Shown here: positions 8,698 through 59,730 of the stretch, piece by piece
Numbering within the stretch: the stretch's first letter is position 1
Layout of the letters: every line of letters begins with the position of its first letter
NCBI GenBank assembly: GCA_963765835.1
Contig: CAVXYF010000016.1
Span: forward strand, 8,050-72,049
DNA: 64,000 bases
From: an uncultured Acidobacteriota bacterium
Lineage (GTDB): Bacteria > Acidobacteriota > Thermoanaerobaculia > UBA5066 > Gp7-AA6
Direction of reading: 5' to 3'
Made by a program: the position numbers and the translations under genes
The notes under the pieces: generated by a model
The model's input: the letters and a program-made list of their open reading frames with translations, nothing else
Told to the model about the DNA's origin: nothing
Databases searched by the model: none

Positions 8698-10704
<2,007 letters not shown>

Positions 10705-33447: not shown

Positions 33448-35428
<1,981 letters not shown>

Positions 35429-38510: not shown

Positions 38511-38657
38511 CGTTGTCCTCCGCTTCGCGGCGAGGTTTGCTTCATGGGAGATGGCGTCTCCGTAAAGCACAACTTGGCGCGGAAGACCGCGTTTGTCGAT
38601 GGGAATAGTTTAGGCCTGAACGATCGTGATGCGGATCGCTCAGAGCCGCGGTCAGTC

Positions 38658-40706
38658 TCAATGCGCCTTCTGCAGCACCATGCTCGGCCGGGCGGCCGCT
38701 GAGTTCCGCCATGTGGTCGAAGCGGGTCGAGAAGGTGCCGACGCCGGCCGTGGCCGAGCGCAGCTCGACGATGAGATCGCCGATCTCCGATTCCGGGATC
38801 GTGGCGCTGAGCACGTCCCAGCCGTTCCAGCCGGGCCGCTCGTCATAGCCGAGGATCTGCCCGCGCCGTGCCGGTGACGAGGCCGGTCGCCTTGGACAGC
38901 GCCTCGGACGGGATCGTGATCTCGACCGACAGCACCGGCTCCAGCAGCACCGGCTTCGCCTTCGGCAGGGCCTCCGCCAGGGCGAGCTTCGCCGCCGCCT
39001 GGAAGGCGGCATCGGAGGAATCGACCGTGTGGTAGGAGCCGTCCGTCAGCGTCACGGCGAGATCGACCACCGGGAAGCCGAGCGGGCCCGCATTTGAGCG
39101 CATCCCGCACGCCGGTCTCGACGGACGGGATGTACTGGCGCGGCACCACGCCGCCGGTGATCTTGTCCTGGAAGGCGAAGCCCTCGCCGCGCGGCAGCGG
39201 CTTGATCTCGATCATCACGTCGCCGAACTGGCCGTGGCCGCCGGTCTGCTTCCGGTGCCGGCCCCGGGCCGATGACGGGCAGCTTGATCGTCTCGCAATA
39301 GGCGACCTTCGGCTTGCCGGTCTCGACGCCGACCTGGAAGCGGGAGGCGAGCCTTTCGACCGCGACGCGCAGGTGCATCTCGCCCTGCCCGAGCAGGCGG
39401 ATCTCGCCCATCTCGGGCCGGGTCTCGACCACGAGGGACGGATCCTCCTCGGTGATCTTGGCAAGCGCGCTCGAGAGGCGCACGTCGTCCTTGCGGTCCT
39501 TGACCTTGAGCGCGAGCGCGTAGACCGGCTCCGGCGGCGCGACGGACACGATGGCGTCCGGCCGCGCCTTGCCGGCCGCGAAGCTGTCGCCGGTGGCGAT
39601 GCCCTCCAGCCGGCCGAAGCCGACCGTGTCGCCCGCCTTGGCCTCGGCGATGCGGGTCGTCGTGCTGCCCACGAGCGTCAGCAGGCTGCCGATCCGCGCC
39701 TCCGCGCCGCGCGAGCCGATCACCGTATCGCCCTCGTGGAACGCGCCGCGCAGGACGCGGGCGATCGAGAGCTTGCCGCCCTGCCCCATATGCAGGGTCT
39801 TCATGACCTGGGCGAGCGGCGGGCCCTCCTCGGGAATGCCGAGGCGCGCGCGGGTCTCGGCAAGCGTCGGCGCCTCGTGGCGCAGCGCCTTGAGAAGCCG
39901 CGTGACGCCGTTGCCGCGCTCGGCCGAGCCGATGAGGGCCGGCACCACGTGCCGCTCCTTCAGCTCCTTCGACGAGATCGTCGAAGACCCGGTCGCGCGG
40001 CGGCTCGATCTCGGAGATCAGCTCCTCCATCAGGTCGTCGTCGTAGTCGGCGAGGCGCTCGAGCATGGCGAAGCGCGCTTCGCGTTCTCGCGCGGCAGCT
40101 CGCCGTCCGGCAGCTCGACGACCTCGCTCGGCGCATGCTCGCGATAGATGAAGGCGCGCTCGAGCGCGAGATCGATGAAGCCGACCGCGATGCCGTCCTT
40201 CCAGAGCGGGATCTGGCGCAGGAGCAGCGGCGTGCGCGAGGCCCGCTGCAGCAGCGCCAGCGTCTCGCGGACGCGCTGCGTCGGCCGTGTCGATCTTGTT
40301 GATGAAGAGGAAGCGCGGGATGTCGGCTTCCTCCAGCTCGCGCAGGATGATCTCGAGCGCCGGGATCTTGCGCTCGTCCGCCTCGCAGACGACGATCGCC
40401 GCGTCGCAGACCGGCGTGACGTTGCGCATCTCGTGCAGGAATTCCGTCGAGCCGGGGCAATCGACGAAGGTCATGCGTCTCGCCGAGAAATTCGACCGTC
40501 GCCACGTTCGGCTCGATGCTCATGCCGTGGGCGCGGGCCTCGGCGCTCGCATCGCCCACGCTGTCCCCGTTCGCGACGCGGCCGGCGCGGGAGATCGCGC
40601 CGGTGCGCTCCAGGATCGCCTCGAGGAGGGTGGTCTTGCCGCTCTGAAACGGGCCGACGATGGCGATGCATCGCGGGCCCGCCGCTCGTCTGCCGTTGGG
40701 TGCCAT
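38658..40706 (-). CDS. Elongation factor G-like GTPase paralog (EF-G 2 / EF-G-like); multiple frameshifts
   Basis: MAPNGRRAAGPRCIAIVGPFQSGKTTLLEAILERTGAI... (G1 motif), ...DCPGSTEFLHEM..., ...FINKIDT.... EF-G domain IV/V-like parts: ...HGQFGDVMIEIKPLPRGEGFAFQDKITGGVVPRQYIPSVETGVRDAL... and ...LGFPVVDLAVTLTDGSYHTVDSSDAAFQAAAKLA.... Confidence 0.7.
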
Positions 40707-40881
40707 GAGGACGTCATCCTTCCCTGCCCCCGCTTTGGCGCGCTCTTGTCCGGGCGCGTTGAGGTCGATGCTCTGCCTCTCGGCGCAGCGTTGGCAAGAG
40801 GTCTTTAAGTCAAGCGGGATCACAGAGAAACGGCCGAGCTCGCGCCCGGCCGTTCCATGTGAGGCAATCTCCGTGAGACGA

Positions 40882-41358
40882 TTACCGCGCCGGGCGCAGC
40901 TCGAGATCGCCGACGCCGAGGGCGAAGTTGAGGCCGGTCTGGCCGCTGACGGAGACGGGCTGGAGGGCGATGGAGCGGTTGGAGCCGCCGACGAGGACGT
41001 TGGCGCCGAGCCCCGCGCCGACCGTCGCCTCGGCGGCACGCGCCCACATAGCTGCCGGCGAGCGAGCCGCGGCGCCACGCTGCCGCCGGAGAAGACCGCC
41101 CAGGCCAGCACGCCCGCGGCGGGTCGCGCCGATGTCGAGGCCGAACCGGCGGATCACGCCGACATAGCGCTCGTTGCGGCCACGGCGCGGATTGAAGGTG
41201 CAGACGTGCTCTTCTGCGAGTCGACGATGAGGCCGATGCCGCCGGACACGTTGCAGGTCAGGACGCCCGCGCGGGTGCGGTTCTGGGCTTGAGCCTCGGT
41301 CGACCCCGAGGGATGCCAGGAGCGCGAGAGCGGCAAGGGGGAAAGCGGCGCGGAGCAT
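40882..41358 (-). CDS. Small secreted protein, DUF992-like; probably frameshifted
   Basis: Signal peptide MLRAAFPLAALALLASL.... The alternative frame carries ...GVLTCNVSGGIGLIVDSQ..., reminiscent of DUF992 proteins of Rhizobiales. Confidence 0.35.
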   Translation of the reverse strand: MLRAAFPLAALALLASLGVDRGSSPEPHPRGRPDLQRVRRHRPHRRLAEEHVCTFNPRRGRNERYVGVIRRFGLDIGATRRGRAGLGGLLRRQRGAAARSPAAMWARAAEATVGAGLGANVLVGGSNRSIALQPVSVSGQTGLNFALGVGDLELRPAR

Positions 41359-41439
41359 GGTGATCTCCTAAGCTCGGCTGAAGCTTAGCGATCAACGGCG
41401 CTGAAGGGGCGCCGTTCCATGCGGAGGACGTCAACCTTA

Positions 41440-42950
<1,511 letters not shown>

Positions 42951-43053
42951 TTAGAAGGGACCGTGACGGCGGCGGACCCTAGTCGCGGCCAAGCCGTCCA
43001 AGCAAGCAAAACAGCCCGCGCTCGAACGGGTTTTCGAGGAGACGCCTTGTCCG

Positions 43054-44038
43054 ATGACCACGTCCGTCACCCGCCGCCTCGCGCTCGGCCTCTTCGCCGG
43101 CGCGACCCTCCTCGCCACCGCCGCCGCCGCCCAGGACCTTCCCGAACCGCGTCATCAAGATGGTGGTGCCCTATCCGGCCGGCGGCCCGACCGACGTGAT
43201 CGCCCGCATCGTGGCGGAGGAGATGGGCAAGGCTCTCGGCCAGAACGTGATCGTCGAGAACCTCGCCGGCGCCTCCGGCGCGGTCGGCACCCGCACGGTC
43301 GCGAAGGCCGAGCCCGACGGCTACACCATCATGTTCGGCAACAACCAGACCCACGGGAACAACATGTTCCTGCTCAAGGAGCCGGGCTACGACGCGGTGA
43401 AGGATTTCGCGCCGCTCGCCGGCGCCGGCGCCTTCGAGCACGTCTTCGTGGTCAGGAACGACCTGCCCGCGAAGATCGATCCCGGAGCTCGTCGCGCTCG
43501 CCAAGAAGGACCCGGGCAAGCTGAATTACGGCTCGACCGGCGTCGGCTCGGGCTCGCATCTGGCGACCGAGCTGTTCATGGTGCGCACCGGCACCAAGAT
43601 GACCCACGTGCCCTTCCGCGGCGCGGCGCCCCTGGTGCACGGAGCTCATGGCCGGCCGCATCGACGTGTCGAACTCGACCCTGCCCAGCGTGCTCGGCCA
43701 GATCCAGGCCGGCCAGATGCGCGCCATCGGCATCGCGAGCCCGCAGCGCAACCCGCAGGCTCCCGGACGTGCCGACCCTGCGCGAGCAGGGCATCACCAA
43801 TGCGGACGCGGAATCCTGGGCCGCCTTCTTCGCGCCGGTGAACACGCCCAAGCCCATCCTCGACAAGCTGTCCGGCACGATCATCGCGATCCTGAACAAG
43901 CCCGACGTGAAGGAGCGCATCACCAAGCTCGGCTTCACCCTGAACGTCCGCGATCCGGAGGCGTTCAGGCCCTATCTCGCCAAGGAGATCCAGACCTGGG
44001 CCGAGATCATCAAGGCGGCGAACATCAAGGCCGAGTGA
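43054..44038 (+). CDS. Tripartite tricarboxylate transporter substrate-binding protein (TctC/Bug family); about 3 frameshifts
   Basis: Signal peptide MTTSVTRRLALGLFAGATLLATAAAAQ. Then ...VVPYPAGGPTDVIARIVAEEMGKALGQNVIVENLAGASGAVGTRTVAKAEPDGYTIMFGNNQTHGNN..., ending ...AEIIKAANIKAE*. Confidence 0.8.
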
Positions 44039-44146
44039 CGGCTCTCGCCACGGTCATCCCGGACGGCGTCAGCCGATCCGGGATCGCGCTCCGGATAAGG
44101 CGCCATACTCGTCGACCGATCCCGGGCTCCGCTGCGCAGCCCCGGG

Positions 44147-44575
44147 ATGACGCGAAGGAGCGACTGCATGGAATTTCATCAAGGCCGCCTGATCGATCAC
44201 GTCCACCTGCGCGTCTCGGACCTCGAGGCGAGCCGGCGCTTCTATCGGGCCGTCCTGAAGGCGGTCGGGCGTGAGCTTCACCTCGGAAAGCCCGAAGCAT
44301 TTCGCCTGCGACGAACTGTGGGTCGATCGGCGGACGGCCCGGTGTCGCGGGTCCACCTCGCCTTCCAGGCCCGGGACCGGGAGGCCGTTCACGCCTTCCA
44401 TGCGGCGGCGCTCGCCAATGGCGGACGCGACAATGGCGGGCCGGGAGAACGCTCCTATCACCCGGGCTATTATGCCGCCTTCGCCTTCGATCCGGACGGC
44501 CACAACATCGAGGCGGTCTTCCACGGACCGGCGGAACGCTCCGCCGAATCCGTCGTGGTACGCGCAAAGGCCTAA
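44147..44575 (+). CDS. VOC family (glyoxalase-like) protein; two frameshifts
   Basis: MEFHQGRLIDHVHLRVSDLEASRRFYRAVLKAVGRELHLG... and ...VHLAFQARDREAVHAFHAAALANGGRDNGGPGERSYHPGYYAAFAFDPDGHNIEAVFHG.... Confidence 0.65.
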   Translation: MTRRSDCMEFHQGRLIDHVHLRVSDLEASRRFYRAVLKAVGRELHLGKPEAFRLRRTVGRSADGPVSRVHLAFQARDREAVHAFHAAALANGGRDNGGPGERSYHPGYYAAFAFDPDGHNIEAVFHGPAERSAESVVVRAKA

Positions 44576-44994
44576 TGCCACGCTGCCACATTGGTTAATG
44601 ATTAGTTAACGCCGATACTTAGCCAGAGATTCCGGAAGCAGCACTTTCGGATGATGCGGGAACTTTCTTGAATCGACAAGTTTTTCTCCCGCAGTCACCG
44701 TTCGGTTGCTAGGGTAAGGTCCGATGAAAACATTCCAGCCAAGAAACGCCTGCCACGTCTCATCCCGCGCCCAGCGCCTCGATCCGCGCCAGGAAAGCCG
44801 CTGCTCGCTGGCTCTGATCATGCTGATGGGCCTCGCGACGCTCTCCGTGATGGCGACCACCCAGGCCCTTTCGGCTCAGGACACGAAGGCTGCCCACGTC
44901 CATTTCCAGCGGTAACGCGTGAGTGAACGGCGGCGCGGTTGACGCCCTGCCGCAGGAGGTTAGCTCTCCGGCATCGGAACGACGGAGAGATCCG

Positions 44995-46140
44995 ATGTTG
45001 AGACTTCGCCTTGCCCTGGCCTGCGCCCTGGCCTTCGGCGCGCATCCCCGCCGCCCTGGCCCAGGACACGCAGCGTCTTCGCACCGACAAGGTGGAGGTG
45101 ATCGTCGAGACGGTCGCCCGCAATCTCCAGAACCCCTGGGGCCTCGCCTTCCTGCCCGACGGCCGCATGCTGGTGACCGGAACGGCCGGGCCGCCTGCGC
45201 ATCGTCGATGCCGACGGCACGCTCTCCGAGCCGATCAAGGGCGTCCCGCGCATCGCGGCCCGCGGGCAGGGCGGGCTTCTCGACGTGGCGCTCGATCCGA
45301 ACTTCGCGCAGAACCGCCTCGTCTATCTGAGCTTTGCCGAGGATCGCGGCGAAGGCCGCGCCGGCACCAGCGTGGCGCGGGGCCGCCTCGAGCGAGGACG
45401 GCACGGCGCTCGAAGCCGTTCAGGTCATCTTCCGCCAGGAGCCGGCCTATACCGGCGGCAACCATTGGGGCTCGCGCCTCGTCTTCGACCGCGACGGCAA
45501 CCTCTTCGTCACCCTGGGCGACCGGTTCGACCTGCGCGACCAGGCGCAGAACCCGGCCAACCACCTCGGCAAGATCGTCCGCATCAAGCCGGACGGCGGG
45601 GCGGCGCCGGACAATCCGTTCCTCGAACCGCGAGGACGCCAGGCCCGAGATCTGGTCCCTCGGCCACCGCAACCTGCAATCGGCGGCGCTTCACCCGACC
45701 ACCGGCGAGCTCTGGACCGTCGAGCACGGCGCGCGCGGCGGCGACGAGGTCAACATCCCGCAGAAGGGCAAGAACTACGGCTGGCCGGTCATCTCCTACG
45801 GCGTCGATTATTCCGGCGCGAAGATCGGCGAAGGCACCGAAGAAGCCGGGTCTGGAGCAGCCGGTCTATTACTGGGACCCGTCCATCGCCCCTCCGGCAT
45901 GGCCTTCTACACCGGCGACAAGTTCCCGGCCTGGCGCGGCAGCATTCTCGTCGGCGCGCTCGCCGGCAAGCTCGTCTCGCGGCTGGAGACCAACGGCAAC
46001 AGGGTGACGGGCGAGGAGCGCATGCTGCAGAACCTCGGCGAGCGCATCCGCGACGTGCGCCAGGGCCCGGACGGCTTCGTCTATCTCCTGACCGATTCGC
46101 CGCAAGGACGCATCCTGCGGATGAGACCGAGCTCGGCGCA
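44995..46140 (+). CDS. PQQ-dependent soluble sugar (aldose/sorbosone) dehydrogenase, YliI-like beta-propeller; about 5 frameshifts, 3' end approximate
   Basis: [16 protein letters not shown]... signal peptide. Motifs include ...[25 protein letters not shown]..., ...[18 protein letters not shown]..., ...[51 protein letters not shown]..., ...[14 protein letters not shown]..., ...[14 protein letters not shown].... Confidence 0.75.
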
Positions 46141-46180
46141 CGTGAGATTCGCTCCGGGCAGCGGTCCGTACCAGAATCGC

Positions 46181-46522
46181 TCAGCGCCCCTGGAAGATGA
46201 AGGCCGCGCCGGCCGCGATCAGGCGAAGCCGATCGAGATGGTTCCAGCCCAGCGGCTCCTTCAGGTAGAGCACCGAGAAGCCGGCGAAGACCACGAGCGT
46301 GATGACCTCCTGCATGGTCTTCAGCTCGGCCGCCGAATAGACCGCGGAGCCGATGCGGTTGGCCGGCACGGCGAACCAGTATTCGACGAAGGCGATGCCC
46401 CAGCTGGCCAGCACCGCGATCCAGAGCGGCGATGTCTTGAACTTGAGATGCCCGTACCAGGCGAAGGTCATGAAGACGTTCGATGCGATCAGCATCAGGA
46501 CGGGCGCGATGTGGGGGTTCAT
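46181..46522 (-). CDS. DUF486 family (DMT superfamily) small membrane protein
   Basis: MNPHIAPVLMLIASNVFMTFAWYGHLKFKTSPLWIAVLASWGIAFVEYWFAVPANRIG.... Confidence 0.7.
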   Translation of the reverse strand: MNPHIAPVLMLIASNVFMTFAWYGHLKFKTSPLWIAVLASWGIAFVEYWFAVPANRIGSAVYSAAELKTMQEVITLVVFAGFSVLYLKEPLGWNHLDRLRLIAAGAAFIFQGR

Positions 46523-46733
46523 GTCGGAAGACCGGAGGAGAGGTGGTGAGGAGCGCCCTGCCCTATTCTCCCGAGGCGGTGTCAAGCTGCCGGAGGGCGA
46601 CGCAGATGAGCGAAGAAGCCGCCATCATGGGCGCCTCGATCTCGGCTATGCCGTGGCCGCTGAGCAGCCGATCGGGTGCGCAGACTTTCGCTCCCGTCGC
46701 CGAGGATCAAGCGGCGGAGCAGCCGTACGAGCC

Positions 46734-47693
46734 TCATCGGACCGGGCACAGGACCGCTATTCCGAGTCCCGCTTCGCTTTCCGGCCCGTGGACGTCAAGC
46801 GTCGATCGGCGAAGTGGCGACGCCGACCTGCGAGCGATCGACAGCTCGTGGGACAGCGCGATCTGGCGCCAGTGCACCGGTGCGTCCTCGCGATAGCGCT
46901 TGAACTCGGCGGGCAGCGCTAGCGCGCTGAGGCGCTCCAGCACCTGCGCGCCGCCCGCGATCTGCGGGTTGGACGGGTCGAAGCCCTCCCGCCGCTCCCG
47001 CTGCGTCACGAGGCCGCGGGCGCGCTCGAAGGCGGTGTCGAGGCGGCGCTCGCCGCGCAGGGCCTTGTTGAAGAAGGCGTCGCCGAAATAGGTCCAGGTC
47101 GCGCCGTCGCGGCAGCCGAAGGACGGCTTGTCGGCCGCCGCCGCCGTGATGACGAGGGTGCGCTCGTCGGCGAGCGCCCTGGCGAAGATGCCGGAATAGC
47201 AGGCCGAGACGATCACGACCCGGTGCTGCGCCCGGGTCTCGTCGAGGAGCGTCCGCGACGTCGCCGCGGCGTCACGAGGCGCTGCGTCGCGTCCGGCCAC
47301 GAGCCCGATGCCCTCGGGCGCCCCGTGCGAGGTGAGGACGAGCACCACGACGTCCTCCGCCGGATCGAGAACCTGTCCCGCGGCCTGCGGCGGCGGCCAG
47401 CAGGGAGGCGGGCGTCGCGCCGGACGCGGCGCTTGGTGTTGAAGCGGACGATGGTGCGTCCTTTCGCGTCGAGCTGCGCCTCGAGAACCCGCGCCGCGCC
47501 CTTGGCCTCGCTCTCGAACACGCTCTGCGGTCCCCAGAGCCCGAAGGACAGGATGTAGACATCGACTACCGCCCGGACGCTGCGGCGCCAGCCGGACCGG
47601 GTCGGCCCGGCGTGCCGCCTGCGCATGGGCGTCGTGAAGCGGGCTCAAGGCGAGCGAGAGCCCAACCAGACAGAAAGCGATCAACCGGCGCAT
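46734..47693 (-). CDS. Peptidase C13 (legumain/caspase-like) family protein; about 3 frameshifts, 3' end uncertain
   Basis: Signal peptide MRRLIAFCLVGLSLALSPL.... Then ...VVLVLTSHGAPEGIGLVAG... (His) and ...HRVVIVSACYSGIFA... (catalytic Cys). The N-terminal part ...VDVYILSFGLWGPQSVFESEAKGAARVLEAQLDAKGRTIVRFNTK... lies in other frames. Confidence 0.6.
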   Translation of the reverse strand: MRRLIAFCLVGLSLALSPLHDAHAQAARRADPVRLAPQRPGGSRCLHPVLRALGTAERVRERGQGRGAGSRGAARRERTHHRPLQHQAPRPARRPPPCWPPPQAAGQVLDPAEDVVVLVLTSHGAPEGIGLVAGRDAAPRDAAATSRTLLDETRAQHRVVIVSACYSGIFARALADERTLVITAAAADKPSFGCRDGATWTYFGDAFFNKALRGERRLDTAFERARGLVTQRERREGFDPSNPQIAGGAQVLERLSALALPAEFKRYREDAPVHWRQIALSHELSIARRSASPLRRSTLDVHGPESEAGLGIAVLCPVR

Positions 47694-47800
47694 GAATACC
47701 CCACCCTCGACTTACTTTACGCGCAGCCGGTGCCGAAAGCCAAGGAACGGCCCAGTGAACGACATCTGCCGAACCGAATCCCCTCTTCCGGGTTTCCCTG

Positions 47801-49525
47801 TCAGAGATTTCTCGACAGAGGGCTTACATGGACATCGCGCTCGACAAGGTTTTCGTCGGCGGCGGCGGAGAGCGGCGCGACGTTCTTCAGCCCGAACGCG
47901 TCGCGTGAACCGGTCCGGTAGCGGTACTTGCGGGCGTCCGGCGGTGGGGGGAGCGCGCCTCGCGCGAGCTCCTTCATTTGCGTCTCGATCCAGGGCTCCG
48001 CATGGAGGCCCCAGCCGGTGAACGCTCCTTCGTACTGCTGCGACTCGTACTCCTCCGGGGTCGCGAAGTAGGAGAGGTACTCGTTCGCGAGGCCGACCGT
48101 CACGACGTTCTCCGGCACGGAGGCCGCGCCGGCGGCGACCGCCGCGGCAACGCGCCGCCCCGCGACCACGGTGAACTCGCCCGGCAAGGTGGCAAGGAGG
48201 ATCCGGCCGATCCGGTGGACTGCGACCGGGACGCGGTCCGGGATCCGGAGGAGCGCCACGATCGCTTTCGTCAGCGGGAACGGAACGCCGTCGAGGTCGA
48301 GCGCTCCGAGCTTGCTTCCGTGATCCTCGCTCGGGAATAGCGTCTTCGTCCCTTCTCGCCAGAGCCCGGCGAGCGGGGTGCGGCCGTCCTCCGCGCCGCC
48401 GAGGACGGGCGCGCCGGGCATGGCGGACTCCGCCGTGCACCGCCGTTTCCCCTGAGCGTCGTGAAAACACTGCTTCTTGATGGGAACGATCGCCAGGGCA
48501 GAGGAGACGTCGCCGTCGACCCGGTCTCGATGAGAGGTCGCTGCGGCGATCGCGTCGGCGAGCCGTCCTCCCAGGCCGATCGCGTCCCGGCGGTCCTGGA
48601 AGAGCCACGCGGGTGAGACGTCGCCCTCCGGACCCGCGAAGACGGCGACGACGGGCGTCACGTCGCCGGAAGCGAGCTGTCGTTCGGCCGTCCGGGCCGC
48701 TACCCCGAAAAAGTCGGCGCTGTAGACCTCGAGCTCGTGCCCCATCGCGGTCGCGTGCGCGCCCGCGAACGCAGCGACAGCGATGACGCGATCGTTATCG
48801 GCGCTGCGCAGGGTGAGAACGCGCACCACCGGATCGACCGCGCGGCCGCACATCTCGTCCGGGTACTCGGGAGTCGGTGTGACGAGAGGGCAGTCGGCGT
48901 TCGCTGCGAGGATCTCCCCGCTCTCGTGATCGAGACGGAAGGCAACGAGGCTGCGGTTGCGCCACAAGCCGGGCGCGCGGGCCGTCGAGAAGTCGAGGGT
49001 CGCGGGCCGTTTCCCCGCCGCGGCCTTTTCAATCGCGTCGGCGATCCGTTTGGCGAGGAACCGGAACAGATGCGGATCGAAGCCGGGCACCTTGGACGCG
49101 AAGACGTTGTACGCGGGGCTCGTCGAGTAGTTCGCGGGACTCTGATGCGTGTGGGTCGCGGCGAGCAGGAGCTGACCTCGAGCCAGGTGCCGCGTCGCCG
49201 CTCTCTCGGAGAGGAGCTGCGCGACTCGGTCACCCAGCCCGGCCGGCATCGACCAGAGATCGGTGGCCACCAGGACCACCGCCTTTCCGTTGCGATCCTC
49301 GACGTAGACGGCTCGGGCATAGAGCCGCGTCCAGACGCCCCGGCCGATCTGGCCAACGGACCCGTGACCGCCCATCGAGAACCCGGGAATCGGCGTGATG
49401 TCGACGCTCGCGGCGCCGCCCTGGAACGACCCGCTCGGCGGCAGGAGGGCAGGCGCGGTCAACCGACCCGAGATCGAGGAGCAACCCAACTGAGCGAGGG
49501 CCAGTAACCATGCTCCCGCCGTCAC
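47801..49525 (-). CDS. Neutral/alkaline ceramidase family protein (secreted); intact 574 aa
   Basis: GTG start MTAGAWLLALAQLGCSS... signal peptide. ...VLVATDLWSMPAGL...LLLAATHTHQSPANYS... is the neutral-ceramidase N-terminal domain signature. No frameshift. Confidence 0.75.
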   Translation of the reverse strand: MTAGAWLLALAQLGCSSISGRLTAPALLPPSGSFQGGAASVDITPIPGFSMGGHGSVGQIGRGVWTRLYARAVYVEDRNGKAVVLVATDLWSMPAGLGDRVAQLLSERAATRHLARGQLLLAATHTHQSPANYSTSPAYNVFASKVPGFDPHLFRFLAKRIADAIEKAAAGKRPATLDFSTARAPGLWRNRSLVAFRLDHESGEILAANADCPLVTPTPEYPDEMCGRAVDPVVRVLTLRSADNDRVIAVAAFAGAHATAMGHELEVYSADFFGVAARTAERQLASGDVTPVVAVFAGPEGDVSPAWLFQDRRDAIGLGGRLADAIAAATSHRDRVDGDVSSALAIVPIKKQCFHDAQGKRRCTAESAMPGAPVLGGAEDGRTPLAGLWREGTKTLFPSEDHGSKLGALDLDGVPFPLTKAIVALLRIPDRVPVAVHRIGRILLATLPGEFTVVAGRRVAAAVAAGAASVPENVVTVGLANEYLSYFATPEEYESQQYEGAFTGWGLHAEPWIETQMKELARGALPPPPDARKYRYRTGSRDAFGLKNVAPLSAAADENLVERDVHVSPLSRNL

Positions 49526-49576
49526 ATTCGCGCGGGAAGGGCGTTTTCGAGTCCCGGCCTGGCGGATCAGATGAAT

Positions 49577-49972
49577 TTACCTCTTCAGAGCGTAGAACCC
49601 GAAGGTCCGGCCTCCCCAATAAGTCGTTCCGGCGAGCTTCTTCTTGTCCCAGCTGAAGATGCGCGCATCGAACTTCTGGGTGTTACCCGGAAAGTTGATG
49701 GAAAACGCCATGTGTTGAAGGCGATCGTCGATGCGGTCGATCTTTCCCGAATGCGTTTTCCCCTGAGAGTCGGTGTAGCGGACTGCCATGTCACACCACA
49801 CCGGGCCCCCGCAGTCGGCTTTGATGTCCGTGATCATCAACGTGCCGACGTGTCCGTCATGGTTCATCGACCATTGGCCGAACCACTCTCCCTTCTGCGC
49901 ATCCGCGAACGCGAACCCGGGAACGACGAGCAAAGCCAGCAATGCACAAGGGGCAAGTCTTCTCGCTTTCAT
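49577..49972 (-). CDS. Small secreted hypothetical protein (131 aa)
   Basis: GGAGG RBS. The signal peptide MKARRLAPCALLALLVVPGFAFA is followed by a Cys-containing mature domain. No known domain. Confidence 0.5.
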   Translation of the reverse strand: MKARRLAPCALLALLVVPGFAFADAQKGEWFGQWSMNHDGHVGTLMITDIKADCGGPVWCDMAVRYTDSQGKTHSGKIDRIDDRLQHMAFSINFPGNTQKFDARIFSWDKKKLAGTTYWGGRTFGFYALKR

Positions 49973-50000
49973 CGGCGTATTCCTCCATTCGGAAAAGTCT

Positions 50001-50519
50001 TCACTGCGTCACCAGTCCCGGAATAATTCGGGTCAGGGGTCGAAGTGCGACCTTCGACACCGTCGGATACAGCCCGTCCATGAGGCTCCAGCCGACGATG
50101 TAGGCGAGGTTTCCTCGAAACACCCAGAAGAAGTGATCGTGCTCCCACGTCCCCAGGATCACGTGCTCGGCGGCCTTCACGATGAAGCTGAAGATCGCGA
50201 AGAGCAGGAACTGCTCGATCCACGGCCGGCGGTGCGCGCCGCCATAGAGGAAACCGAGGCACAGTCCGATCCAGATGAAAGTGTGGAAGAAGTTGTTCAG
50301 CCAGGGGAGAAAGCTCATCAAACCGAGACGGTACAGTCCGTAGTTCGCGAGGAACGTGCCGACGCCCCAACCCCAGAACAGCACCCAGAACGTCCGGCGG
50401 AAGTTCAGCTCGACGTGGTCCTGCGCGTACCGCAGGATCACGAAGAGCGCGGCATAGACGAACAGCACGAGCGCGTAGTCGCCCAGGTCGTTCCCCGTAC
50501 CGAGCCACCGATCGGCCAT
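50001..50519 (-). CDS. Hypothetical polytopic membrane protein (about 172 aa)
   Basis: MADRWLGTGNDLGDYALVLFVYAALFVILRY...FWVLFWGWGVGTFLANYGLYRLGLMSF.... Its start overlaps the stop of the upstream GMC gene (ATGA), so the two are translationally coupled. Confidence 0.55.
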   Translation of the reverse strand: MADRWLGTGNDLGDYALVLFVYAALFVILRYAQDHVELNFRRTFWVLFWGWGVGTFLANYGLYRLGLMSFLPWLNNFFHTFIWIGLCLGFLYGGAHRRPWIEQFLLFAIFSFIVKAAEHVILGTWEHDHFFWVFRGNLAYIVGWSLMDGLYPTVSKVALRPLTRIIPGLVTQ

Positions 50520-52918
50520 CACTTCACCAGAGGCACGGCGTAATCGGCGAGAGCCATCACCGTCAGCTGGGGGTTCACTCCGATCGACGTGGGAAAGACG
50601 CTCGCGTCCACCACGTACAGGTTCCGATAGCCGTGAACGCGGAACTCGGGATCGACGACGCCCTTCTTCGGATCGGCGCTCATCGGGTTCCCTCCCTGCG
50701 GGTGTCCGGTGCCGAGGGTGATGTCGCTCGCGTCCTTCACCAGCTCCGGCAGGCGCCGGAGCTCGGTCGGCGTACGGAACTCGTGGTATTCGAACGTCGT
50801 CGGGATGACGCACTCCGCGCCGGCGGCGAGAAACGCGTTGCCGACGAGCATCAGTCCGTCGAAAAGCTTTTCGAGGTCCGCGCGGGTCGGCTCGTATGCG
50901 ACCTCGCGCCCGGTCAGACCACCGCGTCGCGCCCGCGCGTTGCCCTCGGTGCCGACGAGGATTCCGGCGCAGGTCATCCGATTGTAGCGATGCATGTTGC
51001 GCTCGTGCTCGTGGAACCACCCCGGCATGGTCAGCGCCTGCGCGACGGGAGGGTTGAACCACGTCTCGACGACGAAGCCGCGGTCCGGGGACAGCCGAAG
51101 GTAGTGGGAGATCTGCAACCCGTCGTACGAATTGATGACCTCTGGGAAAACCGCGGTGATCGGAGATCCCATGTTGAATGCCAGGCGATTGCCGGCGCGG
51201 TCCGCCGCGACCCCGGAGTTCTTGAGCAGAAGGCTCGAGGAAACGGCGCCCGCGCTGACGACGAACGTGTTGCCGCGTACGTCGAGCCGGCGGCCGCTGC
51301 GGAATCGGCAAGTCAGACTCGTGACCTCCTCGCCTCGAGCTCGAATCCTTTCGGCTTCGCACCCTGCGATGATGCGCAGTCCCCGACGGCCGTCGACGTT
51401 GTGGTCGCGCTGGATCCACGGGAGCACGGTGTCGAGCATGGACAGCTTGCGGCCGTACGCGCAGCCGATGTTGCAGTAGCCGCATCCGAGACATCGGGAG
51501 ATGTTCGCGTCGACGACGCCGGAGTCGTTGGGCGGCAGATCGAGTCCGAGAGCGTGAACGCCTTCGACGAAGAAACGAGCGCCCGGGTTCAGATTCGAAT
51601 GGTTCTGAGGCTGGATGGTCAGGAGCTCCCGGACCCTCGCGAAGGACTCCCAGAGTCCCGGGGAGTGGATACCCGCGTCTCCCTCCGCCGGATCGTTCCA
51701 CCGGGCAAGGACGTCCTTCGGGATGTCGAAACAGACCGCGTTGTTGACGACCGTCGTGCCCCCGACGCAGCTGCCCTGAAGGACTTGGAACCGAAAGTCG
51801 CGGGTGAGCTGGAGGGCTCCCTGGTCGTACAGCCGGGCGAGCATCTCGACCTCGTCTTCGGTGAACGTCGACGGATCGTGGTGGTCGCCGCGCTCGATCA
51901 TGAGGACGTCGCGCCCCTGCGCGACGAGACCCCTCGCGAGAATGGCGGCGCCCGCGCCGGAGCCGACGATCACGACGTCGGCCGACACGACCTCCGCAGT
52001 GATCTTGGACTCCGTGTCGACTTCGAGCGGGAGCCGCACCGGAGAAGGACTCTGCGCCAATTTCGCGGGGGTCGCCGGGCGCTCCGAGAACGGCACGTAG
52101 CCGGTCACGGCGTGCGTGCGGCGGTCGCTGTAGTAACCGAGGTAGCAGAGCTGCTTGCCCATCCGGATCATGCCCTGGACGATCGTTCGCCAGACCGGCG
52201 GCACGAGGCGGCGGGTGACCTCTTCGTAAAACCGTTTGTGGAGGAACGCGTGGCGGGCGGACCGATCGAGAACCGAGAGAGGCGGGTGGAACGTGAGCAG
52301 GGGATACCACTCGAGGCCGATGAGCACGGCCTTCATGACCCAACGGCTGCGCGCCCGGAAGTCCGCCAGGTAGCGATCGACCGTGTGCGCGACGGTCGCC
52401 GGATCCGCGACGGGTCGGTCCGTGATGACGACTTCGAGCATCGAGGCGAGCGTCCGGAACTGGCCGGCCGAGAGGTATCGCAGCGCGAACCGCGCCCGCT
52501 CGGCCGCACGGTAGAACCAGATCAGAAAAACGAGGATCAGGCCATCCATCGCGACCGCTCCCCAGAGGAGAGCTCGCACCGGCAGTTGCCCGACCGTTCC
52601 CGACGTCTCTCCCCAGAGCAGCACGGCGATCGTCGCGAGCTCCGAGATGAGGTGGCCGAAGATCACGATCAGGACGAGGGCGCGGTATCGCCGTGTGTTC
52701 CCGGATGCGATGAACGCCAGCGCCGCCAGCACGCCGATCTTCACCACCGAGTTCGTGACGAACGGAAGCTGGATGAAATGGGGCTTCCAGGGACCCACGA
52801 GCGCGGGGAGCAGATACCCGAAGATCGCGAGCGTGAAGAGGAATGCGAGAACGCGCAGGAGACCGGCGAGGCGCCGCTCCTCGGGGGTCATGGCGCCGGC
52901 TTCCGAGCTCATCCGCAA
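50519..52918 (-). CDS. GMC family FAD-dependent oxidoreductase with N-terminal multi-TM membrane domain (799 aa, intact)
   Basis: The N-terminal about 140 aa has about 4 hydrophobic helices. The FAD motif is ...DVVIVGSGAGAAILARGL.... The GMC C-terminal signature is ...HGYRNLYVVDASVFPTSIGVNPQLTVMALADYA.... Confidence 0.8.
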   Translation of the reverse strand: MRMSSEAGAMTPEERRLAGLLRVLAFLFTLAIFGYLLPALVGPWKPHFIQLPFVTNSVVKIGVLAALAFIASGNTRRYRALVLIVIFGHLISELATIAVLLWGETSGTVGQLPVRALLWGAVAMDGLILVFLIWFYRAAERARFALRYLSAGQFRTLASMLEVVITDRPVADPATVAHTVDRYLADFRARSRWVMKAVLIGLEWYPLLTFHPPLSVLDRSARHAFLHKRFYEEVTRRLVPPVWRTIVQGMIRMGKQLCYLGYYSDRRTHAVTGYVPFSERPATPAKLAQSPSPVRLPLEVDTESKITAEVVSADVVIVGSGAGAAILARGLVAQGRDVLMIERGDHHDPSTFTEDEVEMLARLYDQGALQLTRDFRFQVLQGSCVGGTTVVNNAVCFDIPKDVLARWNDPAEGDAGIHSPGLWESFARVRELLTIQPQNHSNLNPGARFFVEGVHALGLDLPPNDSGVVDANISRCLGCGYCNIGCAYGRKLSMLDTVLPWIQRDHNVDGRRGLRIIAGCEAERIRARGEEVTSLTCRFRSGRRLDVRGNTFVVSAGAVSSSLLLKNSGVAADRAGNRLAFNMGSPITAVFPEVINSYDGLQISHYLRLSPDRGFVVETWFNPPVAQALTMPGWFHEHERNMHRYNRMTCAGILVGTEGNARARRGGLTGREVAYEPTRADLEKLFDGLMLVGNAFLAAGAECVIPTTFEYHEFRTPTELRRLPELVKDASDITLGTGHPQGGNPMSADPKKGVVDPEFRVHGYRNLYVVDASVFPTSIGVNPQLTVMALADYAVPLVK

Positions 52919-52943: not shown

Positions 52944-55061
52944 TCAGATCCGGACGTCTTCCAGGGACTCGATCCGTTTCTTTCTCGCCTCCTCTGGCAG
53001 GCCTAGCATCGCATCTGCGTTGAGAACGCTTTGGTCGAAGGTGACACCGGTGTCCGTGGATAGATCCTCCAGAGTGACCTGATCAACGTCGAATTTGCCG
53101 GCAGAAAAGTCTTCGATTCCGAATTCGTCGATCGCGTCGCTCTGATCGAGAACGAACGCATACGCACGAAGCGTCGGATTCGAGTCGGCGTCCTGCGCGA
53201 CGAGCAGCACCTTCCAGAAGCGGCGCGGGATCTTGACCGGTCCTGCACCGAAGTCATGGTCTATGTCGGCCTGGTCATCGAGGACCGGCCCGGCATAGAG
53301 CGACATCTTTGGCCCCACGTTCTTTACCTGAGACTGAATGTGATTCTCGAGCTCGCCCCAGAGCCCCCGAAAGCCGAACGCTGCCCGGTTGAATTGCTCG
53401 TGCTGCGGCGTGCAGTTGGTCCAGTGGAAGCTGTCGGAATTCGCGAATACTTCATCCTTTGCGGTGTCGCCCCACGCCGTGTCCTCGCGGCGGACGATGT
53501 GTCCCCGGTCGAACTTCGCGGCGGGCTCGTACAGCTCGGGGTCCTGAATCTGATCCTCTGCCGGAATCCGAGGATCGGGAACCCACGTGTCCGTCCCGAA
53601 TTGCTCTCGCTTCTTACGTCTCTTCGACTTCGTGTAATCCACATTGACCGCGGACCACATCATGAGACGCCGCTTCTTGTTCATCACGAGCGAATAGTGG
53701 TGATAGGCGAGGACGAGCATCTTCCCGGCTTTCTTGAGGATCTCGGAGGCACGGCCGGGTGAGACTCCCGGAAGAGGGACGTCGATCCCGAGGAATGCCG
53801 CGTCGTATCCGGAGCGATTCGGATAATCCGGGTCGAAACGGAGCTTCTTCTCGACGGCCAGCGCATCCACCGGCGGCGCGGGGAGAGCGGGCTGAGAACC
53901 GACCGCGCGCTCGACGCCGAAGTAGAAATTGGCGGTTCCGTTCACGGTGATCGCAACGCCGCGGCCGGGTTTCGGTGCCGGCGCGACCACATCTCCTCCC
54001 TCGACCTGACTCTGAACAGCCGGCAGGTTCTCGAAGTCGTCGCCGAACGTTCGAAGGAGCTTGTCGAGAGCGGCGCGCTGCGTTGGCGAGACGCTCGCCG
54101 TCCTCAAGTAATCACAGATCCGGCTGATCCGTACCCCCTCGTTCGCCACCCAATGAATATCGTCGTCCGGCATGCCGCGTTGCCAGGGCGTGCCCGCTAT
54201 CGTCATGATCGTTCCGTTCTGCATCTCGGGAACGCCGCTGTGATGCAGCGCGACCACCTCCCAGTCCTTGTTGAACGCCGGCGAGCCGGAAGAACCGGGG
54301 AGAGTGTCCGTCGTGTATTGGAGATAGGAGTCTCGATCGGTCGGCGCGAGAAGCAACTCGTTGTCGCGAACGCCGTATTTCTTGGGTCCTCCCTCGGGAT
54401 ACTGAATGATGCTGATCGATTGACCGACGAGGACTTTTCCGGTCGTCGGACTGAGTGTCAGGGTCTTGAACTGACTGACATCCGCGACGCCGTCGGTCGC
54501 GAAAGGTTGAATCCCGACGATGGCGAAGTCGAGATCTTTCGATGCATGGAAGAGAACCGTCGGATCGAGGCGGAAGATCGTGCCTGCCGACAAGCTGCCG
54601 TTCCGCAGCTCGTAACCGAACTGGATGCCGCATCCTCGACACTCGCTCGCTTTGGCGAAAACGTGGTGGTTGGTCAACATGACGTCGCCCGCTATGAGAA
54701 ACCCGGTCGCGAAGCCGTCGCGAACGGTGCCGTCATCGCCGAGCTCGACAATCCGTCCGACCGGCAGACCCGCCCGGCTGGCGGCTTCGTTCGGAGGCGT
54801 CTCATCGAGATCCAGCGTCGGCCCGATTCTGCGCTCCAGGGGACGGAGGTCACCGATGCCGGCCTTCGCGTAGACGGTCTTCTTCGCCGCCTCGCGAGCG
54901 CGGTACGCACGGACGCGCTCGGGCGTGTCCGCGTGCTCCGGCCCGCCGCGCTTCAGCCGCCGGACGGCTTCGGCGCGACGCGGAAGCGCCGCCTGCCAGC
55001 GTTGTCCGGCTTCTTGTGCCTGCTCGATCTGCCTCCGCCTGACTTCCTCAGCGTGACCCAT
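52944..55061 (-). CDS. Fusion protein: trypsin-like serine peptidase (Trypsin_2/S1) + DNA/RNA non-specific endonuclease (Endonuclease_NS, DRGH motif); 705 aa, intact, no signal peptide
   Basis: ATG about 55061 (MGHAEEVRRRQIEQAQ..., a charged helical N-terminus with no hydrophobic stretch). Protease region: ...DGFATGFLIAGDVMLTNHHVF... (His), ...DLDFAIV... (Asp), ...TDTLPGSSGSPAF... (GSSGSP Ser). Nuclease region: ...LAYHHYSLVMNKKRRLMMWSAVNVDY...FDRGHIVRRED...FHWTNCTPQHEQFNR... (DRGH/N catalytic motif of NucA/EndoG-type nucleases). Confidence 0.7.
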   Translation of the reverse strand: MGHAEEVRRRQIEQAQEAGQRWQAALPRRAEAVRRLKRGGPEHADTPERVRAYRAREAAKKTVYAKAGIGDLRPLERRIGPTLDLDETPPNEAASRAGLPVGRIVELGDDGTVRDGFATGFLIAGDVMLTNHHVFAKASECRGCGIQFGYELRNGSLSAGTIFRLDPTVLFHASKDLDFAIVGIQPFATDGVADVSQFKTLTLSPTTGKVLVGQSISIIQYPEGGPKKYGVRDNELLLAPTDRDSYLQYTTDTLPGSSGSPAFNKDWEVVALHHSGVPEMQNGTIMTIAGTPWQRGMPDDDIHWVANEGVRISRICDYLRTASVSPTQRAALDKLLRTFGDDFENLPAVQSQVEGGDVVAPAPKPGRGVAITVNGTANFYFGVERAVGSQPALPAPPVDALAVEKKLRFDPDYPNRSGYDAAFLGIDVPLPGVSPGRASEILKKAGKMLVLAYHHYSLVMNKKRRLMMWSAVNVDYTKSKRRKKREQFGTDTWVPDPRIPAEDQIQDPELYEPAAKFDRGHIVRREDTAWGDTAKDEVFANSDSFHWTNCTPQHEQFNRAAFGFRGLWGELENHIQSQVKNVGPKMSLYAGPVLDDQADIDHDFGAGPVKIPRRFWKVLLVAQDADSNPTLRAYAFVLDQSDAIDEFGIEDFSAGKFDVDQVTLEDLSTDTGVTFDQSVLNADAMLGLPEEARKKRIESLEDVRI

Positions 55062-55073
55062 GGCCCCCGCTCT

Positions 55074-56180
55074 CTACTTGACGACCCGGATCGGGATGTA
55101 GGTCGCGTTGTTTCCCTCAACCACCTCACGGAGCGCACCCCTTTCGTCGATGACGACGCCGAGCCAGTAGCTCGTGTCCGTAGAGAGATCTCTCGGAATG
55201 GTGAGGGTGACTCTCGTCGTGTACACGTCGCCGCGGCTCAGCGTGAACGTGGCCCCGCCGATTCGGCGATCCAGCGTCGTGATGAGATCGTTCGTGGAAA
55301 TGTAGTACCCCGCCGGCACCCCGCTCTGGGTCGTCTTCCCCATGTTTTCGTAGGTGAACTCCGCCTGTACTCTCACGCCCGGGGTTACCCTGTAGCCGGT
55401 CTCTCCGTTCACAGTGAAGGTCGGCAGGTCTCCGCCGGCTGCGGTGTAGAGCTTGGTCTTGGTGTGGTCGGAGTACTCGCCCGAGGCGCCGGAGTACTTC
55501 CAGTGCACGACGCCCAGGTCTTCCCACGCGTCGGGTCGAGCGCCGTATAAGAAGACCGCGCCGTCCGCGGCATCCTCGCCCATGTAGGCCCGTGCCGTGG
55601 AACCGTTGACGTGGATGTGCTCGAAGTCCGTGCCCATTACGTTGTATTCGGTGTTGACATGATTCAGCTTCAGGCCATGTCCGAACTCATGGGAGGCAGT
55701 GGTCTGAAGAGGACGAAGACTGCCGGTGTACCGGATGAGCGACGACTTGACAGTGTCAGCTGTCCACTGCCAGGGACTCATCGAGTAGTCGAAGATCACG
55801 TCCACCTCGTTCATGTGAACGTGGTCTCCGAAGAACCAGTAGCATGTCCAGTAGGAGTAGGCGATCGCCGGAGCGCCGTCCAGAATCGATCCGGTATCGC
55901 CCCAGGCTTCGCTTTGGCCGTTGTCCCGGCCGACACCGCCGCTGTCGGTCCCGAGTGAATACCGGAACTTGCTCGGGTTCAGATTGAATCGGTTGATCCC
56001 GTCCTGGAGGCCGTTGCGCCAGTAGCCGGTGGGGAAGCTGACCCCGCTCGCACCCAAGGTTTTGGAGTTGGAGCTCCACTTCAGTTTCTCGCCGAGGCAC
56101 GTACTGTAGCTGTAGGCGATAGCGGGGCTCACCTGAACGAGAGCGGCTGCCGCGGCGATCAGGACGAACTTCTTTCGCAT
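55074..56180 (-). CDS. Secreted metzincin-type zinc metalloprotease (HEFGHGLKLNH + Met-turn), 368 aa intact
   Basis: GGAGG RBS and signal peptide MRKKFVLIAAAAALVQVSPAIA. HExxHxxGxxH is at ...TASHEFGHGLKLNHVNTEYNVMG.... A C-terminal beta-rich domain follows. It sits 12 nt upstream of the protease-nuclease gene. Confidence 0.75.
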   Translation of the reverse strand: MRKKFVLIAAAAALVQVSPAIAYSYSTCLGEKLKWSSNSKTLGASGVSFPTGYWRNGLQDGINRFNLNPSKFRYSLGTDSGGVGRDNGQSEAWGDTGSILDGAPAIAYSYWTCYWFFGDHVHMNEVDVIFDYSMSPWQWTADTVKSSLIRYTGSLRPLQTTASHEFGHGLKLNHVNTEYNVMGTDFEHIHVNGSTARAYMGEDAADGAVFLYGARPDAWEDLGVVHWKYSGASGEYSDHTKTKLYTAAGGDLPTFTVNGETGYRVTPGVRVQAEFTYENMGKTTQSGVPAGYYISTNDLITTLDRRIGGATFTLSRGDVYTTRVTLTIPRDLSTDTSYWLGVVIDERGALREVVEGNNATYIPIRVVK

Positions 56181-56210
56181 GGTGAACCTCCTCCGCGCGG
56201 ATCGCGCGAC

Positions 56211-57227
56211 CTATCGGGGCTTCAGTACCGGATCGAAGTCCTGCTTCTTTGCGGCCGCGAGCTCGGCAGCTTCTTCCTTGCTCCTGGGCGCTGCCTCCGC
56301 TCGAGCCGGCACCGGTCGGTGCGGAGCGCTCGCCTTCGCGGGCGCGACGATGATCGGAGCGTCGCGGGCGATGCTCCGGATCGGCGACGGGGCGCGCTTC
56401 GTGTGTCCCAGGATCGACTTCAGGACGGTCGTGAACTCCTCGACCGCCATCGGACCTTCCGGGATTGCGTCGGGTGTCGTTGCGATCGCCGACCTCTCGG
56501 CCTGCTGGACCTCGCCCAGTGAGTCCTTATCAATTGCCGCCGGAATGTCGCGCCCGAGCTCGATCTGCTTGGGCGCCTCCGCCTCGTATCGCCGGCGTAT
56601 TTCGTCGAGTGACATCTTCTGCCGCTCCATGAGCGCGCGAACCTCCGCGTTCTTGACGAGGTCATCGAACCTGGGCGCGGGGTAGCGGAACGTGAGGAAC
56701 TCCTTGGGGGGCATCCCACGGGCGATCGCGTTCGTCTTGCGGACTGCGCGCACGGGAAAGCCGTGGTGGTTGTAGACGCCGCCGCGAAGTATTCGGAATC
56801 GGCCCCATTCGCACAGGACGAGCGGGCAGACCCTTTCCCCGTTGCCGGAGACGAACAGCAAGTCTTCTTCGCCAAGCTGGAACATGGGAACTCCGCTGAC
56901 CTCCATGAACCGCCCGGCGCCGTCGGAACCGCCGATAAATCGCATCATGAACGTCTTTCCGTACGGCTGGCCTCGAAGGACGCTGCCAATCTCGTACGTG
57001 ACGATCGTGTGCGGCAGCCCGCCCCCTTCTCCGGCCCGCTTCTCCGAACGGCGATACTCGACGTTCGCAACCCGACCGATGAAGACCAGGTTGGAGCGCT
57101 CGGCGAGTGCCGCGAGGTCGCCCCCTTTGTCGCTGCCGATGTCGCTATGTCCGAACGCGCGTCCGGCTCCGGCGTACCAGGCGACCCAAACGAGCAGTGC
57201 GCAAAAAGCGAGCTTCAGGGAACGCAT
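56211..57227 (-). CDS. Secreted hypothetical protein with disordered Ala/Pro-rich C-terminal tail (338 aa, intact)
   Basis: Signal-peptide-like MRSLKLAFCALLVWVAWYAGAGRAFG. No recognisable domain. It sits 30 nt upstream of the metzincin gene. Confidence 0.5.
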   Translation of the reverse strand: MRSLKLAFCALLVWVAWYAGAGRAFGHSDIGSDKGGDLAALAERSNLVFIGRVANVEYRRSEKRAGEGGGLPHTIVTYEIGSVLRGQPYGKTFMMRFIGGSDGAGRFMEVSGVPMFQLGEEDLLFVSGNGERVCPLVLCEWGRFRILRGGVYNHHGFPVRAVRKTNAIARGMPPKEFLTFRYPAPRFDDLVKNAEVRALMERQKMSLDEIRRRYEAEAPKQIELGRDIPAAIDKDSLGEVQQAERSAIATTPDAIPEGPMAVEEFTTVLKSILGHTKRAPSPIRSIARDAPIIVAPAKASAPHRPVPARAEAAPRSKEEAAELAAAKKQDFDPVLKPR

Positions 57228-59701: not shown

Positions 59702-59730
59702 CGGGGTGATTCAGAAAAGCCAGCCAGTCC

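Follow-up and report, generated by a model that had tools for sequence, protein, structure and literature searches.

The 64-kb window analyzed here, that is, the whole stretch of DNA under study, belongs to a public long-read metagenome contig that is probably chimeric: a thinly covered Microvirga genome would have been mis-joined to a well-covered, Acidobacteriota-like genome at positions 47,853 to 47,855. A mis-join is favored because five independent markers, namely, the ends of homology, two truncated genes, and changes in the density of insertions and deletions (indels), in codon and tetranucleotide usage, and in the taxonomic best hits, all coincide at one base, while no mark of a mobile element is present there. 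The join is, therefore, most likely an assembly error and not a biological event. A first-pass annotation of the window had already preferred two differently sourced sequences over a classical mobile-element boundary, and this preference agrees with the coincidence of error step, synteny break, composition, and taxonomy.

Given the G+C-rich DNA (about 66% G+C across the whole window), the G+C content of the third codon position (GC3) served as a marker of the reading frame, and a six-frame, reference-free hidden Markov model (HMM) of the GC3 phase was run over the window. A frameshift candidate was defined as a phase switch on the same strand without a stop codon of the ending frame within 75 nucleotides (nt). 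Upstream of about 47.8 kb, the coding phase jumped every few hundred bases inside evident single genes. This resulted in 40 frameshift candidates, compared to none in the 16.1 kb downstream, where all 7 frame switches were located on stop codons and thus at gene boundaries. The rate was 0.5 to 0.75 candidates per kb between positions 1 and 33.9 kb and at least 1.4 per kb (1.43) between 33.9 and 47.85 kb, with the latter being a lower bound since the HMM cannot separate closely spaced shifts. With the mean upstream rate, the probability of finding no event in 16.1 kb was about 1e-6; with the lowest regional rate, it was about 3e-4. An abrupt change in gene integrity, which had been placed near 47.7 kb, does exist; its position is 47,853 to 47,855 instead, about 55 nt past the end of the region originally marked.

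Positions 1 to 47,852 were assigned to the chromosome of a Microvirga-like bacterium (Alphaproteobacteria, Hyphomicrobiales), based on the identity of FadD, the gene order of Microvirga sp. VF16 (CP069354.1; the upstream reference), the codon usage, and the 40 frameshift candidates. Translation of the HMM phase segments made the housekeeping proteins RpoD, DnaG, CarA, CarB, GreA, TrxB, FadD, an elongation factor G (EF-G)-like GTPase, and an aspartate aminotransferase recognizable; the segment also contains lysR, tctC, and genes for GSDH, DMT_6, and C13 peptidase proteins. The gene order is the same in VF16, namely, carB, greA, trxB, lysR, fadD, EF-G-like, aspartate aminotransferase, tctC, GSDH, DMT_6, Peptidase_C13, and DUF3775, and the nucleotide identity to VF16 was 81 to 92% between 24.2 and 47.86 kb (blastn). 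FadD, stitched together from ten pieces, aligned along its entire length (100%) with Microvirga proteins of 576 amino acids (aa), at 85% identity. The statement that nearly every long upstream gene needs 1 to 4 frameshifts to be read was right concerning the frameshifts but too low in its upper count, since about 10 corrections were necessary in FadD. A 552-aa open reading frame (ORF) at 30,269 to 31,927 that looks intact is a fragment. It clusters at 90% identity with 828-aa Microvirga cadherin/RTX-like proteins and forms, together with the next ORF (31,949 to 32,752, 267 aa), one gene on the plus strand (30,269 to 32,752) that a frameshift near 31.9 kb has divided.

The last upstream gene encodes a Peptidase_C13-like secreted protein (46,734 to 47,693, minus strand), the VF16 orthologue of which contains the domain PF01650 (Peptidase_C13). 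This gene is distributed over three frames and becomes readable after several frame corrections, with one-base indels compared to VF16 at 47,257 to 47,575. It is followed by a divergent intergenic region between the genes for the C13 peptidase and DUF3775 (47,694 to 47,827), which is conserved with Microvirga. In blastn, window positions 47,685 to 47,746 corresponded to positions 738 to 800 of the VF16 locus and 47,768 to 47,855 to positions 528 to 624. The first 8 codons of the DUF3775 gene (MDIALDKV) are present on the plus strand (47,828 to 47,852): a tblastn search with the VF16 protein matched its residues 1 to 8 to 47,828 to 47,851 with 100% identity, and the rest of DUF3775 had no match anywhere in the window. 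Synteny with VF16 and with a contig of a related Microvirga (ENA ERZ25039536 contig_29016, the sister contig) stops exactly at the join.

On the other side of the join is a truncated gene for a neutral/alkaline ceramidase, visible as a 574-aa ORF on the minus strand (47,801 to 49,525; Pfam Ceramidase_alk). This ORF aligns to residues 19 to 575 of a 710-aa homologue. Since the homologues have lengths of 708 to 710 aa, about 137 C-terminal residues are missing, and this C terminus was not found anywhere in the window. Residues 1 to about 558 of the ORF are genuine ceramidase, the cut is located at about residue 558 to 560, and the last approximately 16 residues plus the stop codon are the antisense of Microvirga sequence. 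Window position 47,853 corresponds to position 3157 of a soil contig from ENA, at about residue 572 of the 709-aa ceramidase encoded there (1443 to 3572). The Microvirga homology ends at 47,855 and the homology to the ceramidase contigs begins at 47,853, so that the breakpoint (47,853 to 47,855) contains three bases, TCG, assignable to either side, and the sequence shared at the join is not longer than 3 nt. No repeat beyond chance matches was present at the join, no insertion sequence (IS) element at the boundary, no integrase domain in the flanking ORFs (Pfam), and no tRNA in the 64-kb window; an Rfam search of the window also gave no match. The absence of integrase, tRNA, and direct repeats noticed in the first-pass annotation was thereby confirmed for the same regions.

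The DNA downstream of the join is of a different quality. The first 1,593 nt past the join were 91.7% identical, without a gap, to a contig of the JGI soil metagenome 3300048539. Of the 14 downstream genes, 9 were colinear in a single frame with homologues over essentially the full length: the 131-aa protein (131/131 residues), the 172-aa protein (171/172), a GMC oxidoreductase (798/799), two VOC proteins (168/168 and 260/260), DUF2277 (100/100), TetR (227/261), a beta-lactamase family protein (564/566), and the ceramidase up to the join. The long downstream ORFs had been described as perfectly intact; this holds insofar as no frameshift occurs in 16 kb, but not for the 574-aa ORF, which is the ceramidase cut at about residue 558 to 560.

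The genes for the ceramidase, the 131-aa protein, the 172-aa protein, and the GMC oxidoreductase form a cluster with the same order on both soil metagenome contigs used for comparison, the JGI 3300048539 contig and the one from ENA. The cluster covers 47,853 to 52,918 of the window, 3,852 to 8,924 of the JGI contig, and 1 to 3,572 of the ENA contig. In the window, the genes following the ceramidase are located on the minus strand (49,577 to 52,918), with the 172-aa membrane protein at 50,001 to 50,519 and the 799-aa GMC oxidoreductase (homologues; Pfam GMC_oxred_N/C) at 50,519 to 52,918. This GMC oxidoreductase possesses an N-terminal membrane region of about 300 aa. The cluster, for which the 185,579 species genomes scanned contained no close relative, may be a bacterial module for degradation of ceramides and sphingolipids. 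On both soil contigs, a convergent gene of about 285 aa lies next to the ceramidase end, of which the last approximately 415 nt are missing from the window. On the JGI contig (6,786 to 8,924), the ceramidase is represented by two gene calls (431 and 273 aa), resulting from an assembly error or a disruption of the gene.

Further downstream, genes on the minus strand (52,944 to 59,685), all in single uninterrupted frames, encode a 705-aa protein with Trypsin_2 and Endonuclease_NS domains, a CARDB-containing 368-aa protein, a 338-aa protein, a 509-aa TPR protein, and an extracytoplasmic function (ECF)-type sigma factor with Sigma70_r2/r4 domains. These assignments, like those of Ceramidase_alk, GMC_oxred_N/C, and TetR, were obtained with Pfam. 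In the 705-aa protein (52,944 to 55,061, minus strand), the Trypsin_2 peptidase domain is combined with a C-terminal DNA/RNA nonspecific endonuclease domain, and short stretches of its gene were 74 to 80% identical in nucleotide sequence to genes for endonucleases and trypsin-like proteins on Rhizobium and Sinorhizobium plasmids. A plasmid search with 47.9 to 55.8 kb of the window yielded only short, weak matches with 1 to 4% coverage, and a plasmid origin is unsupported.

The remaining part (59,562 to 63,851) contains intact genes for TetR, two VOC/glyoxalase family proteins, DUF2277 (61,822 to 62,124, minus strand), and a class C beta-lactamase family serine hydrolase (62,151 to 63,851, minus strand), with 88 to 94% nucleotide identity to ENA ERZ25039588 contig_47245. 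The latter two genes have relatives in metagenome-assembled genomes (MAGs) of Acidobacteriota. ERZ25039588 contig_47245 comes from an ENA analysis neighboring that of the Microvirga sister contig and displays similar consensus damage: TetR and the adjoining VOC gene were fused into one call of 361 aa, and the beta-lactamase matched the window in a single frame over only 46% of its length.

The two halves of the window differ in composition, as a comparison of tetranucleotide and codon usage had been proposed to reveal; both shift at the join. The tetranucleotide z-scores of any 16-kb upstream piece correlated with those of the rest of the upstream half with values of 0.82 to 0.86 and with those of the downstream half with values of 0.63 to 0.69. 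The relative synonymous codon usage (RSCU) correlated with 0.985 to 0.988 among the three upstream thirds and with 0.937 to 0.946 between each third and the downstream half. The share of GGC among the glycine codons was 0.77 upstream and 0.52 downstream, and that of CGC among the arginine codons was 0.59 compared to 0.38. The upstream RSCU agreed with that of VF16 (r = 0.986) and of the Microvirga sister contig (r = 0.996). The downstream RSCU agreed with that of genes unrelated to the window on CAWHTA010000007.1, a contig of the [quoted passage not shown] (r = 0.991), and on ERZ25039588 contig_47245 (r = 0.982). The region between 47.9 and 59.6 kb has no homology to CAWHTA010000007.1 and still displayed an r of 0.985 with its RSCU.

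Separate homology searches with both halves, which had also been proposed, led to Microvirga upstream and to Acidobacteriota (Thermoanaerobaculia) downstream. When 185,579 species genomes were scanned with a profile of the beta-lactamase, with the taxonomy read from the best 80 loci, the best locus was that on the Acidobacteriota contig CAWHTA010000007.1 (83% aa identity), followed by Thermoanaerobaculia and other Acidobacteriota MAGs (71 to 77%). Alphaproteobacterial loci reached only 50 to 60%, and no Microvirga locus was among these best 80. DUF2277 was 98% identical in aa sequence to its counterpart on CAWHTA010000007.1 and 84 to 85% to those of two short-read Thermoanaerobaculia MAGs, and its adjacency to the beta-lactamase is common to the window and the Thermoanaerobaculia MAGs (beta-lactamase, 72% aa identity there). 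The ceramidase had no close relative in the 185,579 species genomes (GTDB), Microvirga included.

Several observations concern these two genes. The full-length copy of the beta-lactamase gene on CAWHTA010000007.1 is at 10,001 to 11,683, and between 16,700 and 17,550, a second, partial copy (87.6% nucleotide identity) is followed by DUF2277 (96.7%), arranged as in the window. An identical DUF2277 protein is also encoded on other contigs, which have a length of only about 1 kb and thus provide no gene context. In 11 loci of alphaproteobacterial MAGs, among them Terricaulis, Caulobacteraceae, and Hyphomonadaceae, a 50 to 58% identical homologue of the beta-lactamase (at about 10 to 20 kb of each locus) adjoins trxB at a distance of not more than 10 kb from greA, carB, and in some cases the aspartate aminotransferase gene, the same housekeeping genes as in the upstream half. 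A native linkage of the two halves via such trxB-adjacent homologues was considered and rejected, since the identity was only 50 to 58% and the copy in the window groups with Acidobacteriota. This adjacency was judged to be a coincidence of one lineage-specific insertion and not evidence for linkage.

An exact-sequence look-up identified ORFs of both halves on one public contig of 502,342 bp, present in NCBI and ENA. These were, from the upstream half, the 161-aa AsnC and the 552-aa fragment and, from the downstream half, the 574-aa truncated ceramidase, the 131-, 100-, and 168-aa proteins, and a 474-aa call of the beta-lactamase. This indicates that the join is present in the deposited record and was not made by cutting the window.

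The upstream frameshifts are consensus errors and not pseudogenes. Compared to VF16, 68 high-confidence one-base indels were mapped, 56 insertions and 12 deletions; the positions noted for them were 33,900 to 47,700 and also 24,571, 25,686, and 26,101. The inserted base was G or C in 45 of the 56 cases. Insertions created a CpG in 54% of the cases (null expectation of 23%, p = 7e-7) but extended a homopolymer in only 18% (null expectation of 49%, p = 1e-6), so that 82% were outside homopolymers. Runs of 4 or more G or C were rarer upstream (4.2 per kb) than downstream (7.0 per kb). Under-calling of homopolymers was rejected as the main mode, since the mapped indels were mostly insertions outside of homopolymers. 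A serial emission of both alleles of a polymorphism was also considered; in 16 of 28 cases, the partner base of the new CpG occupied codon position 3, with a chance expectation of about 0.42, which was not significant.

A real pseudogenization of a decaying genome next to a functional, recently acquired island would agree with the disruption of nearly every long upstream gene but is extremely unlikely. Corrected proteins were full length and conserved (about 85% identical to their orthologues, without internal stops), essential genes such as rpoD, dnaG, carA, carB, and trxB were affected, and GC3 remained at 0.8 to 0.9 throughout, and these features argue for consensus errors instead of gene decay. 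Bacterial gene decay comes with a deletion-biased, repeat-associated indel spectrum, the opposite of the nearly exclusively single-base, insertion-biased, homopolymer-avoiding changes in the upstream half. Moreover, the Microvirga sister contig was damaged alike at other sites, with 25 insertions and 19 deletions compared to VF16, an EF-G called in three pieces, and a GSDH called as a 115-aa protein.

The density of the indels was not constant in the Microvirga part. Compared to VF16, it was about 1 per kb across carB (24.2 to 27.0 kb) and about 0.6 per kb over 24.2 to 33.9 kb. It stepped up at about 33,300 to 33,980 and reached about 4.7 per kb from 33.98 kb on, while the synteny with VF16 (AsnC-Elm1-TrxB) continued unbroken. 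The block from 33,900 to 47,852 had the highest indel density of the window, in agreement with the HMM rate, and this internal step fits the definition of a polishing or coverage boundary within one genome. Thinning of the read support toward the join over the last approximately 14 kb may explain it. The internal step indicates that a step in the error rate alone is no proof of a join. The change at 47,853 could, accordingly, also be regarded as a boundary between well- and poorly polished or covered stretches of one genome without any join, as the first-pass annotation had considered for an island polished to a different depth. However, a difference in polishing would not account for a DUF3775 gene that is cut at codon 8 and a ceramidase that lacks about 137 residues at its end. 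Additionally, synteny with VF16 and the Microvirga sister contig ends exactly there, and codon usage and taxonomic best hits switch at the same point. This explanation is, thus, very unlikely.

A more serious alternative, although still an unlikely one, is that the junction is real. Illegitimate recombination may have brought 16 kb or more of DNA from an Acidobacteriota-like donor into a Microvirga, or such an island may have become fused to DUF3775 when a deletion occurred later. Some other factor would in that case be responsible for the different consensus quality, for instance, reads of an abundant, near-identical donor in the sample that cleaned the island only. A point junction truncating two genes also resembles a deletion scar, codon usage and best hits of the donor are expected of a recent island, and the changing error density at about 33.9 kb demonstrates that the consensus quality is not constant in one genome. 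A real transfer or deletion junction would account for everything except that the consensus quality changes simultaneously: the read depth is expected to be the same all along one molecule, and a drop from about 5 indels per kb to none in 16 kb at the same base needs an extra coincidence. In addition, the boundary contains no integrase, tRNA, repeat, or IS element, and no close Microvirga relative was found for the ceramidase in the scanned genomes or for the beta-lactamase among the best 80 loci. A 35-nt pattern spanning the junction was absent from the JGI metagenome contigs; this lack of a second copy is a weak argument, since the source record belongs to ENA/NCBI and the search was uninformative in this respect. 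It is improbable that a soil Microvirga carries a genuine join to a recently obtained cluster of genes for a ceramidase, a GMC oxidoreductase, an ECF sigma factor, and secreted hydrolases.

In the chimeric contig favored here, positions 1 to 47,852 would come from a Microvirga-like alphaproteobacterium with a poor consensus, containing one-base indels every 0.15 to 2 kb, and position 47,853 onward from a different, well-resolved genome, which is most closely related to Acidobacteriota (Thermoanaerobaculia-like) MAGs and to unbinned contigs from soil. The Microvirga side may have been at a low read depth, perhaps covered by a single read over the last approximately 14 kb. It may have been linked, by a chimeric read or by a spurious edge in the assembly graph, to an abundant organism, the high depth of which would have led to an error-free consensus. 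The sister contigs and MAGs resembling each half suggest that Nanopore sequencing, assembly with Flye, and polishing by Medaka underlie the data. The ENA relatives of the two halves, ERZ25039536 contig_29016 and ERZ25039588 contig_47245, have Flye-style contig names, and CAWHTA010000007.1 is part of a Microflora Danica MAG. For its MAGs, the Microflora Danica project assembled Nanopore R10.4.1 reads with metaFlye and applied a single round of Medaka, without short reads (PMC12313526). A Nanopore consensus below about 40-fold coverage retains frameshifting indels (Sereika et al. 2022, PMC9262707). Assemblies by metaFlye and metaMDBG are documented to contain chimeric contigs that cross phyla, and abrupt shifts in gene-level taxonomy, composition, and coverage are markers of such chimeras (Trigodet et al., bioRxiv 10.1101/2025.04.22.649783).

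Evaluation of this mis-join needs to consider several points that weigh against it. The case was built from the consensus sequence, and the attribution to Nanopore and Flye is indirect, via the relatives and sources of the contig. The indel signature, being insertion biased, mostly outside homopolymers, and often creating CpG, is unlike the classical homopolymer deletions of Nanopore sequencing. Indel density also rises at about 33.9 kb without a break in synteny, the label "Acidobacteriota" of CAWHTA010000007.1 comes from a bin of the same kind of pipeline, and the codon usage of a donor is also expected of a recent foreign island.

The interphylum chimeric contigs described by Trigodet et al. 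share with the window a sudden shift in taxonomy and composition at one point without a repeat or mobile element. They were defined by read clipping and a coverage step, however, while a step in the consensus indel rate was used as a proxy here. A low-coverage Nanopore consensus (IDEEL type; Sereika et al. 2022) resembles the window by its dense one-base indels that split conserved genes, found here on one side of the join and in the Microvirga sister contig. The published pattern is dominated by homopolymers, in contrast to the 82% of insertions outside of homopolymers and the 54% creating CpG. The boundary of a genomic island or horizontal transfer would similarly show accessory genes for secreted hydrolases and regulators with foreign codon usage that abut a block of core genes. 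It differs from the window in that neither tRNA, integrase, direct repeat, nor IS element is present here, both flanking genes are cut, and the sequence quality changes at the same base. Finally, a decaying, pseudogene-rich genome differs from the upstream half, where no in-frame stops remain after correction, the proteins are conserved, and the indels are insertion biased.

Outside of these main subjects, the Microvirga part contains 1.3 kb without a coding signal (15,016 to 16,335) but with palindromic elements similar to repetitive extragenic palindromic (REP) sequences. Two arms (15,328 to 15,362 and 15,388 to 15,422) were 89% complementary, and the copies at 15,317 to 15,420 and 15,896 to 15,970 matched an intergenic element of VF16 (locus positions 4,370 to 4,469).

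The 502-kb contig in ENA and NCBI can be flagged as a probable cross-phylum chimera, at least about 48 kb of which contain hundreds of frameshifted gene calls. The position of a chimeric join can be determined at the level of single bases without reads when a step in the frameshift density is combined with the codon usage and with the points at which homology to relatives of either side ends. Genes of Microvirga and Acidobacteriota-like genes would be mixed in any MAG including this contig, proteins that are truncated or fused, for example, the 574-aa ceramidase ORF, would enter the protein databases, and the contig would inflate the apparent horizontal transfer, for instance, by suggesting a "Microvirga ceramidase." The junction itself is not a new element or mechanism and has little biological weight.

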